Source: Leptospiria bacterium (GTDB lineage Bacteria > Spirochaetota > Leptospiria > Turneriellales > CBDBES01). Taken from it: a DNA stretch of 64,000 nt. Location: the NCBI GenBank assembly GCA_965204465.1, contig OZ241995.1:933688-997687 (forward strand). Reading direction: 5' to 3'. Shown here piece after piece: positions 11,654 through 63,392 of this stretch (within the stretch, counting starts at the first letter, position 1; every line of letters starts with the position of its first letter). Position numbers and translations under genes: made by a program. The notes under the pieces were generated by a model. It did no database searches. It was not told the origin of the DNA and was given only the letters and a program-made list of their open reading frames with translations.

Positions 11654-12002
11654 GTATTATTTTTTCTCATCCTTCAGTCCCGAGGGGAATGAACAAGCAG
11701 TGTAAGATATGCATTCATTTCTCCGCAGTATATATGAAAAGAATATCTTTTTAACACACCAAATAAGAAAACATGGGGACTATATACTTTATTGTACAAG
11801 GTGAATTTTAATCTAAATGAAAGGACTGACCTTTCTTGTCCTATCGGCATACCGTCGGGATGTCATAGGACGTGTTGAGTCTGCTAGCCATTTAAGGAAG
11901 GTCTATCTTATTTATCGGATTTTTTCTCTTTTTTGAGATAGAAATTTTTTTCTCTTTTGTAACGATAATATCTTTTTCTTTTTCAGATATTACTTTTGAA
12001 TA

Positions 12003-12171
12003 TAGACTTCGAATTACTTTTAGGTTTTTTAGATATGTCTAAAAGTGCCTCTATATTATACTTTGTCTTTCTCAATCTTCTGATCCAGAAATAATATGTT
12101 TGTAGAGCATAACCAAATTGGTCAGAAGTTAATTTAACATTGCCCGATTGTAAGGCTCTTATAAAACAGAC
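12003..12171. mobile_element. ~170-bp fragment of the IS3/IS481-type element (homologous to 26097-26257)
   Basis: Direct nucleotide similarity (~90%) to the N-terminal coding region of the transposase at 25340-26347. Confidence 0.7.
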
Positions 12172-12198
12172 ATTACTTATTTTTCTTTAGTTCTTCAG

Positions 12199-12393
12199 GC
12201 ATTTTTAAAGAGCTTACAAGACATCTGGTATTTATCGAACAGGGAAAAAATTGAATCTCTTTTTAGGAATTACTTCAAACCTGTGTATAAGGGAAATGAA
12301 AAATTGCTTGATAATTTATTTGATTATATTATACATACTATTAGTAGGCTTAATATCAGGCTTGTAGTTAAGATTGCTATTAAATCAATTTAA
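12199..12393 (+). pseudogene. Fragment of an Rpn/YhgA-like gene (copy of aa ~170-233 of the gene at 61200-62126)
   Basis: Translates to AFLKSLQDIWYLSNREKIESLFRNYFKPVYKGNEKLLDNLFDYIIHTISRLNIRLVVKIAIKSI*; near-identical to the full gene on the opposite strand. Confidence 0.75.
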
Positions 12394-12422
12394 CATTCCA
12401 AATAACAGGTGTATACATAGTA

Positions 12423-12486
12423 GCCGTTTCACCCTACGGGCACAGGTTTTACATAAAAAAAAGAAAGACCTGTGCCCGTAGGGTGA
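12423..12486. repeat. Palindromic mini-repeat (21-bp perfect inverted repeat TTTCACCCTACGGGCACAGGT ... ACCTGTGCCCGTAGGGTGAAA)
   Basis: Seen directly; the core recurs at 17091-17111, 28449-28475, 62382-62400 and 62830-62852. Confidence 0.8.
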
Positions 12487-12618
12487 AACTATAGTGGAAT
12501 GACATTCTAATTCTGATAATATTACTGGTATCCGTAGGGTGAAAGGAAAATTAAAAATAGGGGTAGCGTTAGTTATACCCAAGCGTAAATTTTTAATCGC
12601 CGACTGATCTGAAGGTCT

Positions 12619-17042: not shown

Positions 17043-17100
17043 AGAAAAATTCATTCTTTCTTTTCTATCCTACGATAAATACGAATATAACAGAAGACCT

Positions 17101-24989: not shown

Positions 24990-25166
24990 GCTAAGAAGCA
25001 GCATTAGCTAGGAAGCAGCATTAAGAAATGAAAAGAAATGAAAAGAAATGAAAAGAAATGCTAAGCTAGCAGTGCAACTGCTAGCGCAGTGCCCTTGGGT
25101 GAAAAGAAATGCTAAGCTAGCAGTGTAACTGCCAGCGCAGTGCCCTTGGGTGAAAAGAAATGCTAA
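24990..25166. repeat. Compound tandem-repeat (minisatellite) array: 17 bp x2, 10 bp (GAAAAGAAAT) x4, 51 bp x2
   Basis: Seen directly; array abuts the left inverted repeat of the IS1182-like element. Confidence 0.85.
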
Positions 25167-25317
25167 GGGGCTGTCTAAAAAGGCTTACGAGAAAAAGTCT
25201 ATTATAATTACTTGTCAGGATAAATCGATTTTGCTCTATTCTACGTTATGTCTCAGAATAATTCACTTTTATTTACAGACCTGCCTCCGCAAGAGGTAAA
25301 TGATAAGAAATTGTAGA

Positions 25318-26522
25318 AACCAATGACATATCTTACACATTAAGAAGCTATTTTAGTCATTCTATTCCGATGGAACCTTTGATATGGCGTCAAGTTATTT
25401 AATGAAGAGTGCGGGCGGATCTTATTATACCAATTCACAAAGTTATCTACGATAGTCTGAATCTCAATAATACTCATTCCATTTTTAATTTTACCTTCAA
25501 GGGCTCTCTTCAAGGTTTGATTGAAACGCTCTACTTTACCATTCAGCTCTGGCGTTCCTGGACGGATCAATTTATGCTCAATACCTGCTTCTCTTAAATA
25601 TTCTTCAAAGCCACTGATCACAGACTTTTTTTTTCTCCTGGGATTCTCTTGGGAAACATATTTAGAAGTAAACTCGACTCCATTATCTGTTTGTATTTTT
25701 TGTGGCATCTCAAATTTTTCCACAAATTTTTTGATCCCATTGGTAGCTTCATAGTTACTATGTTCATCAGCTATGTGTACCACCACAGTTCGTGAACAAT
25801 CATCTATAACTGGATAGGCCTTCACAGAATGCCCGTTGTTATCTACTATCCCAAGGTTCACAGTATCCGTCTGAACCCTCTCTAATGGCTCCTGAAGGGC
25901 ATAACGCTTTGTATGGCTGTTTTTTCGAGGTATTCTATATTGTTGGGAAATATTCTTGCGCCTGAAGATATATCCTAATGTGGAAGCATGTATCTCAATT
26001 CCATGATCCCTTTTTAATAATAGGGTTGTCAATTTAGCACCTGCATTATAGTTATCCTTTCTGACTTGGATAGCCAGATCAATGACGCTCTGGTCTATAG
26101 ACTTTGAATTACTTTTAGGTTTTCTAGATATGTCTAAAAGTGCCTCCATATTATACTTTGTCTTTCTCAATCTTCTGATCCAGAAATAATATGTTTGTCG
26201 GGCATGACCAAATTTGTCAGAGGTTAATTTAACATTGCCCGATTGTAAGGCTCTTATCAGGAATAATGCTCTCTTGCGTATTATATGATTTTTTATTCCT
26301 TTCAGATTTTCCTGTATAATTGAAATTTCTTGTTCATTATTTTTCATATTTCAATCCTTGATAATTTATTTCTAAAATAGACTTAGGGATAAACTGCTTT
26401 ATTCAGTCCAGAAAATTTCAGGTAGTCGTTCGGTTCGGTTCCCTCACCTTCCTCCTACCTGAAATCATGGCCCCTACCCTGGGGATCTAACAAGTAGTGT
26501 AAGATATGTCATTGGTTATTGT
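25318..26522 (-). mobile_element. IS3/IS481-type insertion sequence (~1.2 kb) nested inside the IS1182-like element
   Basis: Inverted repeats of at least 21 bp (AACCAATGACATATCTTACAC) at both ends; flanked by direct 15-bp TAAATGATAAGAAAT. Confidence 0.7.
25340..26347 (-). CDS. Transposase, HTH + rve (DDE integrase core)
   Basis: N-terminal HTH; catalytic core with DTVN...QTDNGVEFTS...E; 335 aa single ORF. Confidence 0.8.
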   Translation of the reverse strand: MKNNEQEISIIQENLKGIKNHIIRKRALFLIRALQSGNVKLTSDKFGHARQTYYFWIRRLRKTKYNMEALLDISRKPKSNSKSIDQSVIDLAIQVRKDNYNAGAKLTTLLLKRDHGIEIHASTLGYIFRRKNISQQYRIPRKNSHTKRYALQEPLERVQTDTVNLGIVDNNGHSVKAYPVIDDCSRTVVVHIADEHSNYEATNGIKKFVEKFEMPQKIQTDNGVEFTSKYVSQENPRRKKKSVISGFEEYLREAGIEHKLIRPGTPELNGKVERFNQTLKRALEGKIKNGMSIIEIQTIVDNFVNWYNKIRPHSSLNNLTPYQRFHRNRMTKIAS

Positions 26523-26654: not shown

Positions 26655-28196
26655 ATGGACAAAATCAATATTGATTCTCTTATATCCAGCTATAAAGGTG
26701 GGGGAGCCAGCGCCTATAATCCCAGGTTATTGTTAAGTGTGTGGCTTCTGGCTCTTACTTACAAGACCTATAGCTGTCGTGGGGTAGCTAAATTGCTTAG
26801 AGAGAACATTGCCTTTAAGTGGCTCAGTGGGAATAAGATCATAGATTTTCGTACCCTGAATAATTTTCGTTCTCGTTTAGAGAAAGATATAAAAAAGATA
26901 TTCCAGGAGGTGATTCAAATAGGTATAAAGAATGGTATTATTACTGCTAAAGATATTTTCATAGATCATTCTAAATTCGAGGCAGATGCGAATCGTCATA
27001 AGGTGATCTGGGGCAAGCGTGTAAAAAACCAAACAGCGAAGATAGAATCAGAGTTAGACATGCTTTTTTCCTATATTTCTCGCATTGAGAAGTCAGAGGG
27101 TAAAGAATACGGTAATGGTGATTACTCTGAGACAAGTAACAGGAACTTCTCGGATTCTGATATAGATAAGATGATCACAGATGTTAATTCACAATTAAAA
27201 GATCATGAGATAAGCCGTGATGCTGGGCGGGACAGGAAAGCGAAGTTCCGTCGGCTAAAAGTATTATTACATCGGCTCAAGAAATATAATTATTCAAAAT
27301 TATTATTAGGTAAGCGTAGGAGCTATTCGAAGACAGACCCCGATGCGACAGCTATGTTTCAAAAAGACGAAGTGATCAAGCCTGGATATAATGAGGGTGT
27401 TGCCACGAGTGATGGGTTTGTTTTAGATTACTCCATCTCGCAGACCTCAGGTGATACTGATAAACTGATTGATTTAGTCGATGGCACAGAGAAAAATACA
27501 GGCGTAAAAGCAGATTCGGTTACAGCGGATTCTGCCTATGGCAGTGAAGAGAACTATCAACATTTAGAAGATAAAGATATAAAAGCTAATGTGAAGTATT
27601 CTACCTATCATCCTGAAAAGACAAAAAAGTATCATCAGGCAAAGGTTTGCAAAGATCAGTTTCTTTATGAAAAATCATCTGATACTTATCGCTGTCCTCA
27701 GGGCAAGGTGCTGACATTTATTAAAGAGAAGTTATCAAGAAAAACAGTTAACGGTTATAGAGCCAATGTTAAAGTCTATTCCGCCAGAGAAGAAGATTGT
27801 TCTGGTTGTTCATTAAAACAGTTCTGCACCAGGGGCAAAGCCCGTAGTCTTCATATCAGCGCTAATTATGACAGACTAAAAGTTAAGGCGAGGAAGCAGC
27901 TTCGCAGCTCTGAGGGGCGGGCTTTATCGAAACGCAGAGGCTTTGAGGTAGAGACCATTTTTGGTCATAAGAAACGGAATTCTTTCTATAAAAGATATTC
28001 TCTCAGGGGCATTGATAAAGTCCGAACAGAGACAGGTATGTTCTATACCAGCTATAATTTAGTAAAGATGTATCGGTATGCGATGAAGCAATTTTCTTCC
28101 TATGCTTATGGTTTAGACCGTCTTGGATCAGGGGATCATGGGAGAGGTGCGCCCCTCTTATTCGGAAAACAGCCTACTGGCTGCGCAGGGGGCTAA
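26655..28196 (+). CDS. IS1182-family DDE transposase
   Basis: 513 aa; ADSAYGSEENYQHLE motif characteristic of IS1182/IS5-type transposases; C-terminal Cys-rich region. Confidence 0.75.
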   Translation: MDKINIDSLISSYKGGGASAYNPRLLLSVWLLALTYKTYSCRGVAKLLRENIAFKWLSGNKIIDFRTLNNFRSRLEKDIKKIFQEVIQIGIKNGIITAKDIFIDHSKFEADANRHKVIWGKRVKNQTAKIESELDMLFSYISRIEKSEGKEYGNGDYSETSNRNFSDSDIDKMITDVNSQLKDHEISRDAGRDRKAKFRRLKVLLHRLKKYNYSKLLLGKRRSYSKTDPDATAMFQKDEVIKPGYNEGVATSDGFVLDYSISQTSGDTDKLIDLVDGTEKNTGVKADSVTADSAYGSEENYQHLEDKDIKANVKYSTYHPEKTKKYHQAKVCKDQFLYEKSSDTYRCPQGKVLTFIKEKLSRKTVNGYRANVKVYSAREEDCSGCSLKQFCTRGKARSLHISANYDRLKVKARKQLRSSEGRALSKRRGFEVETIFGHKKRNSFYKRYSLRGIDKVRTETGMFYTSYNLVKMYRYAMKQFSSYAYGLDRLGSGDHGRGAPLLFGKQPTGCAGG

Positions 28197-28521
28197 AAAG
28201 AAGGTAAAAAAAGTGATATTCAGGAAAAAAGTCACTTTAAATGAGATAAAACCCAAAAATATAGAAATAAAACTATACCTCCAGCCCAGCCGCAGGCTGT
28301 TCCCCAAATACTACTCAAAAGACTCTTATTAAGCGCCTGTATTGGCAAAGTCAATGAAAAATCACTCCCTTTTTAGACAGCCCCAATCCCCAGCCTTGCA
28401 AAACATCCATGTTTTGTAGGGGGTGGGGGTATGAATTAAAAAAAGAAAGACCTGTGCCCGTAGAGTGAAAAAAAGAGTGTCCACTTTATGGGGTAAGGCC
28501 ATGTTTGTAATTTTAAAAATT

Positions 28522-60906: not shown

Positions 60907-61199
60907 GTTAAAAAAATAGATTTAATTATATATGACTGGCTGTAAAGCAGTTTAAAATAGAAAAACATAAATTGTTCATTTTAATGGAAGTTCACAGACT
61001 TTGCTTTGAAAGTCTAAGATCGTCAATCAAAGTAGAATGCCATTCCATTTTTTCTTCTTCATGCGAACACTCCTTATCTATGGTTACGAGTATCTACTTT
61101 TTTGGGGTAAGGCCAGGGTGGTTTTTACACAAAAAAAAGAAAACGGCTACTATGTATACACCATGCTATTTGGAATGTTAAATCGATTTAATAGCAATC

Positions 61200-62126
61200 T
61201 CAACTATTTTTTCTTAATTTTTCAATTTCTTCTACCGAAATGCCAGTGGTTTCTGAAATAATATCAATCGAAATATTCTTTGTCAAAAGCCTTAAAGCGA
61301 CCTCTGCCCTGCCTTCCTCCCTGCCTTCCTCCCTGCCTTTCTGCATACCTTTCTGCATGCCTTCCTCTCTGCCTTTCTTTTCAAGTTGTTCTGCAATGGT
61401 CATGATCTTACCTCCTGAGTCTTCTGAAATATATTTAATAGCAATCTTAACTACAAACCTGATATCAAGTCTGCTGATAGTATGTATAATATAATCAAAT
61501 AAATTATCAAGCAATTTTTCATTTCCCTTATACACAGGTTTGAAGTAATTCCTAAAAAGAGATTCAAGGTTTTCCCTGTTCGATAAATACCAGATGTCTT
61601 GTAAGCTCTTAAGAAATGCCTGAAGAGCTAAAGAAAAATAAGTAATGTCTGTTTTATCTGATCTAAGATCAAATAAATCATAATGAAAATCTGGAATATA
61701 TTGCTTAAGTTCATCTCTCATCTCATCAGGAATTAAAAGAGAAGCAGCAAAATTCAAGGCAACTGTCCACTTTTCTTTACCATGATAAAGAACCAATGGG
61801 ATCACTGCGTATTTTTTAACTTTGTAAATACCTGCTAAATACAGCAATAACTGTGCATGTATGTTTTTATCAATATATGATTTATGTTCTACCAGGCAAA
61901 AAATACCAATCCTGCCTCCCTTTTGTGTGGGGATACTGTATAAAATATCTGTAAATCTTTCTTTCCCTTCAGAGTCTATAAAGTCTCCTTTTTCAATTTT
62001 AAGTTTTTTGAAGTTCAGTTTAGATGCTATTTTACTCTGAAGGATATTTTTAAGGAAATCAACAGCGTACTTTTTATTGGATAAAACTTTTTTAGTGATT
62101 ATATCATGATTGTTGATTTCACTCAT
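61200..62126 (-). CDS. Rpn-family (YhgA-like, PD-(D/E)xK) recombination-promoting nuclease / putative transposase
   Basis: N-terminal HDIITKKVLSNKKYAVDFL...FTDILYSI...IFCLVEHKSYIDKNIHAQLLLY matches the Rpn/YhgA consensus; C-terminal KGREEGMQKGMQKGREEGREEGRAE repeat tail. Confidence 0.7.
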   Translation of the reverse strand: MSEINNHDIITKKVLSNKKYAVDFLKNILQSKIASKLNFKKLKIEKGDFIDSEGKERFTDILYSIPTQKGGRIGIFCLVEHKSYIDKNIHAQLLLYLAGIYKVKKYAVIPLVLYHGKEKWTVALNFAASLLIPDEMRDELKQYIPDFHYDLFDLRSDKTDITYFSLALQAFLKSLQDIWYLSNRENLESLFRNYFKPVYKGNEKLLDNLFDYIIHTISRLDIRFVVKIAIKYISEDSGGKIMTIAEQLEKKGREEGMQKGMQKGREEGREEGRAEVALRLLTKNISIDIISETTGISVEEIEKLRKNS

Positions 62127-62283
62127 TAACGGCTAAGTTTTAAATAGGAAGATATGCAAGAAAGCATTAAATTGACTGACCTTACCCCAAAAAAGAAAGA
62201 AAGATAACTATATTAGAATGTCATTCCATTCTTTCTTTTCATTTACGGACACAGGTCTTTTTCCCCTTATCCTCCTCTTCCCA

Positions 62284-62395
62284 GCTTACTTTTAGTAAAG
62301 ACGATCGGTTGGGGTGCAAAACATGAATGTTTTGCAGAACGGAGCACCCTGTGACATGGAAGTCACAGCGCGTGGTTTTTTCACCCTACGGGTGC
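62284..62395. repeat. ~110-bp structured repeat (copy 1; copy 2 at 62729-62850)
   Basis: Conserved flanks and conserved CTGTGAC-ATGGAA-GTCACAG hairpin; the upstream 9-10-bp hairpin differs in sequence but is retained in structure. Confidence 0.7.
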
Positions 62396-62444
62396 AAAAC
62401 ACGGATGTTTTTCACTAAGTTTCCGTTCGTGAAACTTAGTATAT

Positions 62445-62545
62445 CCTCATCAAAACCGCTTCCGCTAGTTTTGATTCGGGCACACGTGCAGACGACTTGC
62501 TCCGAATGGTGTTGCGTAGCAACCCAGGAGGCCAAGTGTCTGGGG
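62445..62545. repeat. Inverted copy of the ~100-bp GC-rich repeat at 24758-24858
   Basis: Reverse-complement identity with 1 mismatch. Confidence 0.85.
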
Positions 62546-63392
62546 TGGTACTTCTTTTTTACATAAAAAAAAGAAAGAAAAATATAAGAGGGTGTTCCGT
62601 TGCCGCCGCATCCTTGCGGCGTTGCCTGCCGATCGCTCTTGCAACAAATAGCTACTATGTATACCCCCTATTTTTTCTTTTCTCTCTATGAATACAGTTC
62701 TTTTCTCTTCTCTTTTTCTTCTTCCCAATTTACTTTTGTAGATAGATGATCGGTTGATAATGCAGGCATGGATGCCTGCAAAACGGAGCGCCCTGTGACA
62801 TGGAAGTCACAGCGCGTGGGTTTTTTTCACCCTACGGGCACAGGTCTTTGTTTCTTTCTTTTTTTTACATGTCCAGCCTAACTTCCATGTGAAAAAAGAA
62901 AGAAAGATAAGTTATTTTTTGACCGATGATCTATTTTGGCAGACTTTCTTTACAAAGTGTATAAACTACCTATACCTATAAATACTCCATGGGTTAGTGT
63001 GGAACTATTCGTATTGTAAAAACGGTAGCCTAAAGATAGATGCATAGCGAAAAAAGAGCTAAATAGCCATGAAGTCTCTATGCTAGTCGTGAAAAAAAAG
63101 TTGTTTGACAGAAAACTTTCTTCCCCTGAAAAATTCTCGGAAGTGGTTTTTTGTCTACTTAAGCTTATGTAATGACCAGGAGACAATAGAGTTACAACAC
63201 GCCATTTTTTATTAAATATCCACGACCAGCCAAGGTTTACAGAAAAAGAATATAGTTGAGCATCAAAAGTATTTTGTTGTGCCTCTCCGAACCTGTTTAG
63301 TGAGCGATCCTCGAGTGAGTTTAGAAAAATACGGTAACTATACGCTTTGATACACTATATATTTTATTATTCAATATTTGTAAAATACCGAT

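Follow-up and report, generated by a model that had tools for sequence, protein, structure and literature searches.

Repetitive extragenic palindrome (REP) hairpins, whose 5′ tetranucleotide is GTAG, serve RAYTs, and the hairpins at the ends of IS200/IS605 elements serve TnpA; Y1-transposase systems conserve the stem sequence and the flanking guide bases, not the loop apex. Among regulatory RNAs, RsmY, RsmZ and CsrB titrate the CsrA dimer. The TwoAYGGAY RNA (RF01731; Weinberg et al. 2010, PMC2864571) has no known function and is a predicted CsrA binder (PMC4333381), and the 10-nucleotide optimum for RsmE/CsrA reads (A/U)CANGGANG(U/A) (PMC6849547, PMC5864733). In Leptospira, CsrA binds GGA hexaloops; Leptospira has csrA-fliW without a csrB or csrC homologue, and FliW is thought to antagonise spirochaete CsrA (PMC8668096). 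Here we describe a pair of non-coding direct repeats, each ~150 nucleotides (nt) long, in DNA of a Leptospiria bacterium (contig OZ241995.1; the 64,000-nt stretch that was analysed is called the window). We tentatively read the two repeat units as paralogues within a modular family of REP/BOX-like hairpin repeats that is non-coding and lineage-specific and has built up in a mobile-DNA island, a reading that may well be correct. Judged by analogy, the unit would work most like REP/bacterial interspersed mosaic element (BIME) or BOX-type modular repeats, and its shape and loop sequence resemble those of TwoAYGGAY and Rsm-type RNAs.

Like REP/BIME repeats and REPINs, the hairpins of this locus are short intergenic palindromes that occur in both orientations, are clustered, lineage-specific and associated with insertion sequence (IS) sites, and show compensatory stem changes. 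Unlike them, they conserve the loop apex rather than the stem and a 5′ GTAG, no RAYT was seen, and the copy number visible in the 64-kb window is low. With pneumococcal BOX (boxA-boxB(n)-boxC), Correia/NEMIS and RUP elements the units share a modular build, with an internal hairpin module occurring 0, 1 or 2 times per unit or alone, an intergenic position and a stable predicted RNA fold; they differ from these in phylum, in having no sequence similarity to them and in lacking terminal inverted repeats.

The two units and their hairpins

The units were delimited by pairwise alignment and have the same orientation, at an offset of 444 nt. They and their hairpins are as follows.

62244..62392 (+), unit copy 1 (~149 nt): an M1-like start (TACGGACACAGGTCTTT), a pyrimidine spacer, GATCGGTTG, hairpin 1, the linker AACGGAGC, hairpin 2, GTGG-T6 and CACCCTACGGG
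62687..62838 (+), unit copy 2 (~152 nt): the parts in the order of copy 1, with a degenerate 5′ M1-like start (TATGAATACAGTTCTTT) and a T-run of 7 T
62315..62336 (+), hairpin 1 of copy 1: TGCAAAACA-TGAA-TGTTTTGCA, apex CATGAATG, with GAA replacing GGA; RNA fold -8.6 kcal/mol
62761..62780 (+), hairpin 1 of copy 2: TGCAGGCA-TGGA-TGCCTGCA, apex CATGGATG; RNA fold -12.5 kcal/mol
62345..62374 (+), hairpin 2 of copy 1: core CTGTGAC-ATGGAA-GTCACAG (62349-62368) with an interrupted extension, then G and T6 at 62375-62381
62788..62817 (+), hairpin 2 of copy 2: core (62793-62812) identical to that of copy 1, extended by GCGC/GCGU around a C.C mismatch, then GGG and T7 at 62818-62827

An earlier note on this DNA, made from the sequence alone, had found both copies and quoted their conserved strings exactly. 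It had put their length at ~110 bp; the homology starts about 40 nt further 5′, at 62244 and 62687. Divergence between the copies is uneven. Identity is 71% over the 5′ M1-like start and pyrimidine spacer, 69% around GATCGGTTG and 68% in hairpin 1, and it rises to 93% over the linker, hairpin 2, the T-run and CACCCTACGGG, so that the 5′ two-thirds (70%) differ significantly from the 3′ part (93%; Fisher p = 5e-4). The window has exactly two copies (62347 and 62791) of a 29-mer around hairpin 2, CCCTGTGACATGGAAGTCACAGCGCGTGG, where shuffled sequences lead one to expect none. The units are richer in GC (47-54%) than the window (36%), and on both strands the fold of a whole unit is more stable than that of shuffled sequence (z from -2.5 to -4.4). 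The window has 42 perfect hairpins of at least 7 bp, and seven of these are packed into the 498 nt from 62315 to 62812, against 0.33 expected.

Hairpin 1 had been described as a stem with a 2-nt loop whose sequence was completely different in the two copies. A 2-nt loop is not physically sensible; the stem has 9 or 8 bp and is topped by 4 unpaired nt, which can equally be written as the hexaloop AYGRAT closed by a C-G pair. Nor are the two sequences unrelated, given that 15 of 22 aligned columns are identical and that the outer TGCA/TGCA and the apex CAYGRATG are kept. Relative to copy 1, copy 2 has two A-T to G-C pair swaps and the symmetric loss of one pair, and its pairing stays perfect; hairpin 1 folds in both copies with z about -3. 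Hairpin 2, extended beyond its core, forms an interrupted 11-12-bp stem on the plus strand (-16 to -17 kcal/mol), and U6-7 begins 1-3 nt beyond it. Its sole substitution, A to G at 62347/62791, exchanges an A-U for a G.U pair.

Two further hairpin-1-type modules were found in the window.

62393..62414 (+), hp3: TGCAAAACACGGATGTTTTTCA, apex CACGGATG; directly 3′ of copy 1, with one C.T stem mismatch
28397..28418 (-), hp4: TACAAAACATGGATGTTTTGCA; 11 nt from the end of an IS1182-like element and ~30 nt from a copy of the M1 motif, with one A.C mismatch (G.T on the other strand)

The earlier note had proposed additional copies as a check on covariation. These two supply such copies, each with one disruptive mismatch, and hp4 pairs fully only on the strand reading AUCCAU. 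Over the four copies there are two pairs with changes on both sides and two unpaired cells, a score reached by 33 of 500 column shuffles. The covariation of hairpin 1 is thus real but thin, a single event (two swapped pairs and one deleted pair) in one of four copies. Intrastrand template switching can also keep perfect DNA palindromes symmetric. The claim that structure conserved without sequence is the hallmark of a functional RNA therefore holds in part: hairpin 1 keeps its pairing through two-sided changes and the folds beat shuffles, but 'hallmark' goes too far, because the covariation is one event, a non-selective route to it exists, the modules behave as a repeat family and no promoter, terminator or significant Rfam match was called.

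Several conventional identities for the units were considered and rejected. Their open reading frames (ORFs) have no Pfam match and, owing to the unequal T-runs, do not share a frame between the copies, which speaks against a coding role. They are not miniature inverted-repeat transposable elements (MITEs): neither terminal inverted repeats nor target duplications are present, and direct M1 copies flank the units (62244/62386 and 62687/62833). An integron attC site is rejected, as GTTGGGG and GTTGATA do not fit GTTRRRY and no integrase is adjacent. A CRP-like operator is rejected as well, since the spacing in hairpin 2 (TGTGA-N8-TCACA) is wrong and a palindrome as variable in sequence as hairpin 1 argues against a shared operator.

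The loop apex and its likeness to CsrA-binding RNAs

The most informative feature of the locus, overlooked by the earlier note, is an apex containing CANGGANG that is shared by unrelated stems. When aligned on their loops, hairpin 1, hairpin 2, hp3, hp4 and one more hairpin represent four unrelated stems with the common apex C-A-N-G-G-A-W-G. The additional hairpin has the opposite orientation to the units, so that apex hairpins are present on both strands.

62604..62621 (-), GC-rich apex hairpin: CGCCGCA-AGGA-TGCGGCG, with CAAGGATG as the same CANGGANG apex

Six CANGGANG sites in the window stand on at least four further stem pairs, against 0.15 in shuffles, and five of the six lie within 62355-62806. 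The overall frequency of CANGGANG is at chance (22 sites in the window against 21.4 expected), and GGA as such is not enriched (8 in 607 nt, equal to background). The shared 8-mer forms the core of the RsmE/CsrA optimum, four to five of the apex hairpins match all ten positions of that optimum, and the window thus holds the multiple loop GGA motifs of this form that are looked for in CsrA-binding Rsm-type small RNAs (sRNAs).

This apex bears on the idea of a neutral ~150-bp local duplication in junk DNA, with stems kept by template switching and the shared loop by common descent. Two like-oriented units at a 444-nt offset in gene-free DNA, a covariation that is one event and the lack of homologues in the collections searched would all agree with it. 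However, hairpin 2 and the 62604(-) hairpin match hairpin 1 in the apex only, not in the stem, a divergence of 70% against 93% identity is unexpected for a single neutral event, and modules recur at 12.4, 17.1 and 28.4 kb. We consider this explanation decidedly improbable.

A permissive Rfam search placed the core of the TwoAYGGAY model (positions 47-111) on copy 2 with 27.2 bits (E = 0.13), below the gathering score of 43 bits, which is not reached anywhere in the window; on copy 1 there was no match even at E up to 10. The shared GGA apex explains this sub-threshold match. The likeness consists of two adjacent hairpins with AYGGAY-like loops (AUGGAU and AUGGAA) closed by C-G and A-U. In contrast to the family, the outer stem of the model is unmatched (positions 1-46 and 112-168), and the minimum-energy folds of the two copies disagree on an enclosing stem. 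The loops read AUGGAU and AUGGAA in copy 2 and AUGAAU and AUGGAA in copy 1, so that the loop of hairpin 2 ends in A, not Y, and hairpin 1 of copy 1 departs from the pattern. The units also belong to dispersed-repeat modules in a spirochaete, whereas the family is found in Clostridiales, gamma-proteobacteria and gut metagenomes. The units therefore fail membership of TwoAYGGAY on score and outer stem, and their loops fit its pattern only in part. At the gathering threshold, Rfam finds only a tRNA in the whole window.

The apex raises the possibility, which we regard as doubtful, that each unit is a plus-strand sRNA gene of about 90-110 nt, starting near GATCGGTTG and ending in the U-tract that follows hairpin 2, with that hairpin as intrinsic terminator, and that the two RNAs are redundant paralogues acting as CsrA decoys. 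By analogy, two A-N-G-G-A-N hexaloops closed by C-G and a single-stranded ACGGAG would titrate a CsrA dimer; the GGA sites are 32 nt apart, which is within CsrA-dimer bridging range. The idea draws on the apices ACAUGGAUGU, ACACGGAUGU and ACAUGGAAGU, which fit the 10-nt optimum, on the excess of apex hairpins and their clustering within 0.5 kb, with four of the five clustered ones on the plus strand, on the elevated GC content of the units and on the TwoAYGGAY core on copy 2, given the predicted CsrA binding of that family. Leptospira CsrA offers a precedent for GGA hexaloops (PMC8668096). The 3′ end is terminator-like, and the A-U to G.U change in extended hairpin 2 is tolerated on the plus strand only. 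A decoy would also explain the apex and the uneven conservation better than the repeat-family reading does.

Other observations weigh against a decoy. No promoter or terminator was called at either unit, by scans that do no better than chance in this genome, and the T-run is part of M1, which is found elsewhere without hairpin 2. Hairpin 1 of copy 1 has lost its GGA, and one apex hairpin of the region as well as the one at 28.4 kb lie on the opposite strand. The evidence on strand conflicts: hairpin 2 with its U-tract and the G.U pair favour the plus strand, whereas a minus-strand reading keeps an alternative enclosing stem (GCACCC/GGGUGC vs GUGCCC/GGGCGC, with one compensatory change and one wobble) and agrees with the full pairing of hp4 on its AUCCAU strand. 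GGA is at background overall, copy 1 lacks a TwoAYGGAY match and that of copy 2 is below gathering, and no CsrA-like ORF occurs within the 64-kb window. The locus is moreover a mobile-DNA insertion absent from relatives, and a covariance model of the apex hairpins (R1) found no hairpin in the window beyond those it was trained on, and none in 105 kb of DNA from relatives. CsrB/CsrC and RsmX/Y/Z resemble the units in having several (A/U)CANGGANG(U/A)-type loops, a linker GGA, a U-tract after the last hairpin and paralogous copies; unlike them, the units have 2-3 sites each, no recognisable promoter and no sequence homology, sit in a mobile island and have some of their sites on the other strand.

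The fuller claim is that the units are TwoAYGGAY-like, Rsm-type, CsrA-sequestering plus-strand sRNAs that travel on a mobile repeat and are spread by it, in a spirochaete lineage whose one known CsrA antagonist is the protein FliW. This appears unlikely. If the units were transcribed and bound by CsrA, they would constitute an RNA antagonist of CsrA outside Proteobacteria, and would give the orphan TwoAYGGAY motif class a function and experimental traction.

The stable hairpins and the T6-7 after extended hairpin 2 on the plus strand could also be taken as a cluster of intrinsic terminators insulating an Rpn-like gene and an IS from each other. No plus-strand gene lies upstream or downstream of the units, and both the Rpn-like gene and the IS transposase are on the minus strand, on which no T-run follows the hairpins. 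Hairpin 1, hp3 and hp4 have no T-run, and, as noted, no terminator was called at the units. Such a cluster is very hard to credit.

The modules and the mobile-DNA island

The 3′ end of the unit (T-run and CACCCTACGGG) is the first half of a recurrent boundary motif, M1 (CACCCTACGGGCACAGG / TTTCACCCTACGGGCACAGGTCTTT), and the T-run belongs to this motif. The copy at the end of unit copy 2 and a structured element located between the units are given here.

62826..62849 (+), M1 boundary motif: TTCACCCTACGGGCACAGGTCTTT
62445..62548 (+), 105-nt GC-rich (about 56%) structured element, 97% identical to 24858-24754(-); a member of the mosaic outside the unit proper

Further M1 copies occur at 12428(+), 12475(-), 12531(-), 17093(-) and 28446(-), with partial copies at 62244(+) and 62380(+), for about eight in the window; two of them form an inverted pair at 12426-12487. 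M1 contains CCCGTAGGG, i.e. GTAG, which is not beside hairpin stems. Other short modules are interleaved with these: AAAAAAGAAAGAAAGATAA, TTAGAATGTCATTCC, GGGGTAAGGCC and the 105-nt element, which has no Rfam match and fold z-scores of -2.3 (plus strand) and -3.7 (minus strand). Module use is BOX-like. Hairpin-1-type modules accompany hairpin 2 in the two units, one more (62393) comes after copy 1, and the one at 28.4 kb stands by itself next to M1; M1 for its part is found alone or as an inverted pair.

Several other observations concern these modules. A GAAAGAAAGATAA module follows both copies of the 105-nt element, one of them 110-215 nt upstream of a TPR gene. Copy 2 is followed at 62851-62910 by a long A/T-rich hairpin (TTTCTTTCTTTTTTTTACATG ... 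CATGTGAAAAAAGAAAGAAAG) with CATGGAAG in its loop on the minus strand; this region (62847-62911) gave sub-threshold, spurious Rfam matches to plant miRNAs. At 48241-48582, the 3′ end of a gene for a 2607-aa repeat protein contains a 160-bp tandem duplication, and the 22 nt inserted at the duplication junction (48401-48422, CCCCATAAAGTGGACACTCTTT) are the reverse complement of 28472-28493, beside M1. This insert looks like a trace left within a gene by the repeat system described here. A 51-nt tandem duplication (25049-25167, 97% identical), with GCTAGCAGT-GCA-ACTGCTAGC-type palindromes and TTTCATTTC(TTT) runs, lies in the spacer between the TPR gene and an IS481-like element.

The host branches deeply within the Leptospirales: the best match to its GltX outside the source genome is 62%, and the named matches are Leptospiraceae, Turneriella and Spirochaetia metagenome-assembled genomes. 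In this genome the units sit in a 1.26-kb gene-free stretch between an Rpn/YhgA-like gene and an IS1182-like element.

61200..62126 (-), Rpn/YhgA-like (Transposase_31) gene, lying between 20-nt inverted repeats (61097-61116 and 62176-62195)
63392..64000 (-), end of an IS1182-like element, with two aligned blocks (380 + 158 nt) identical to a copy at 26655-28385; it closes the gene-free stretch

The inverted repeats (CTTTTTTGGGGTAAGGCCAG / CTGACCTTACCCCAAAAAAG) are 95% complementary, and a solo core, GGGGTAAGGCC, lies at 28490-28500. From their sequence and placement they look like the termini of a mobile unit, although, to our knowledge, mobile-unit termini are not an established property of Rpn genes. 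Other patches of modules lie at 11.65-12.6 kb, at 24.6-25.3 kb and, beside an IS end, at 28.39-28.52 kb. All module copies are in gene-free patches with IS or Rpn material, save the M1 at 17093, which is in an ordinary short spacer. Within the first of these patches, 12001-12429 holds a fragment of an IS481-type integrase (95% to 26096-26257) fused to an Rpn fragment (96% to 61657-61433) and followed by the inverted M1 pair. In the closest relative with DNA compared (L017), the block of Glycos_transf_3, SpoIIE, GltX and HisZ-like genes is syntenic and cheX abuts it directly, which makes the 60.9-64 kb patch (Rpn, repeats and IS) an insertion island.

Neither the unit nor the apex hairpin was found in 105 kb of relatives' DNA. 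A pattern scan of the genome-contig collection (AACGGAGC-N20-50-TTCACYCTACGG) gave 12 matches, all chance and in unrelated phyla; two pattern scans of metagenome contigs (hairpin-2 core and M1) gave none, and viral contigs, phages and plasmids held no homologue of the unit. M1 (CACCCTA(T)CGGGCACAGG), by contrast, has a counterpart in a relative whose GltX is 58% identical. It reads CACCCTATCGGGCACAGG there, one base longer than in the window, and occurs once upstream of an Rpn-like gene and in tandem arrays on both sides of an IS110 fragment (ENA ERZ25068043). This recurrence indicates that M1 is an old, REP-like motif of the clade; its M1-like counterpart in relatives is possibly an IS110 target.

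L015 6660-6736 and 7587-7641; also L013 9652 (relatives' DNA): M1-like 19-nt tandem arrays flanking an IS110-family transposase fragment

Structured repeats of other kinds accompany Rpn-like genes in relatives. In one relative (L014, ENA ERZ26693861), four Rpn-like genes stand in tandem, and ahead of each lies a GC-rich array of tandem ~45-nt hairpin units with the consensus CCGACCGCTAGTTGCGAGTGATGCTTTGATCGCTGGGCGGGAGTG. In other relatives the Rpn-like genes are flanked by a covarying element composed of a GNRA-loop hairpin (e.g. CTTGATAGC-GTAA-GCTATCAAG), then CGAAGTGCT, then a second variable GC hairpin. The 105-nt element of the window ends like this Rpn-flanking element (GTTGC-GTA-GCAAC ... 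AAGTGTC). A permissive Rfam search upstream of a relative's Rpn gene found nothing.

L014 5-660, 1746-2130, 3247-3510 and 4625-4890: arrays of hairpin units without similarity to the window unit, sharing the theme of an Rpn gene with structured repeats
L013 9700-9800; L015 6150-6215, 6560-6640 and 6790-6850; L016 4890-4950 and 5985-6060: covarying Rpn-flanking element, no Rfam match

This setting could mean that the hairpins act as DNA, as sites, single-stranded or cruciform, that a transposase or recombinase recognises, cleaves or targets, or as preferred insertion targets of IS1182-like, IS110-like or Rpn-like elements. The position of hp4 11 nt from an IS1182-like end, the M1-like arrays flanking the IS110 fragment, hairpins in both orientations and the GTAG within M1, like that of REP, are all consistent with such a role, as are the inverted repeats around the Rpn-like gene and the other hairpin repeats flanking four Rpn loci of relatives. 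However, the flank of the second IS1182 copy is unrelated, which means that the hairpin is neither part of the IS (for which reason membership of the IS1182 element was rejected) nor an obligatory target. Here the stems differ while the loop is conserved, the opposite of Y1 systems, and no Y1/HUH gene was seen in the window. We judge a role as DNA sites to be quite unlikely.

A proposed modular hairpin repeat family

We return to the repeat-family reading that we favour tentatively. The building blocks would be the M1 boundary motif, the hairpin-1-type module, the hairpin-2 core, and A/G-rich and other short modules, joined in varying number, order and orientation via duplication and recombination. 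The hairpins, and especially the apex C-A-N-G-G-A-W-G on its variable stem, may be recognised by a trans-acting protein, in single-stranded DNA or in read-through RNA. Hairpin symmetry would then be upheld through selection, through template switching that corrects palindromes, or through the two together, and the near-identical 3′ 60 nt may be either the most constrained part or a part homogenised by gene conversion. The assumption of a separate sRNA gene would not be needed.

Much of what a repeat family entails can be read directly from the locus. Modules are dispersed, with hairpin-1-type hairpins lacking hairpin 2 at 62393 and 28397(-) and M1 on both strands; they are associated with IS and Rpn material, and the island is an insertion. 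Some copies have decayed, as seen in the mismatches of hp3 and hp4, the GGA to GAA change in hairpin 1 of copy 1 and the degenerate M1 at 62687. Also in keeping with the family are the lack of a promoter or terminator call, of an Rfam family at threshold and of a conserved ORF at the units.

Certain features count against this reading. The family is small, with two full units and six apex hairpins counted in 64 kb of genome. A plain selfish-repeat model predicts neither the same 8-nt apex on four unrelated stems nor a linker, hairpin 2 and tail that are 93-100% identical where the rest is 70%. No RAYT-type Y1 transposase was evident in the window, in a search limited to five ORFs scanned against Pfam. 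The units are bounded by direct M1 copies, with neither terminal inverted repeats nor target duplications.

If the repeat-family reading is true, the units would add one more lineage-specific structured intergenic repeat family, which would be unsurprising. It would help to annotate a deep-branching Leptospirales genome and to understand how its mobile-DNA islands are built.

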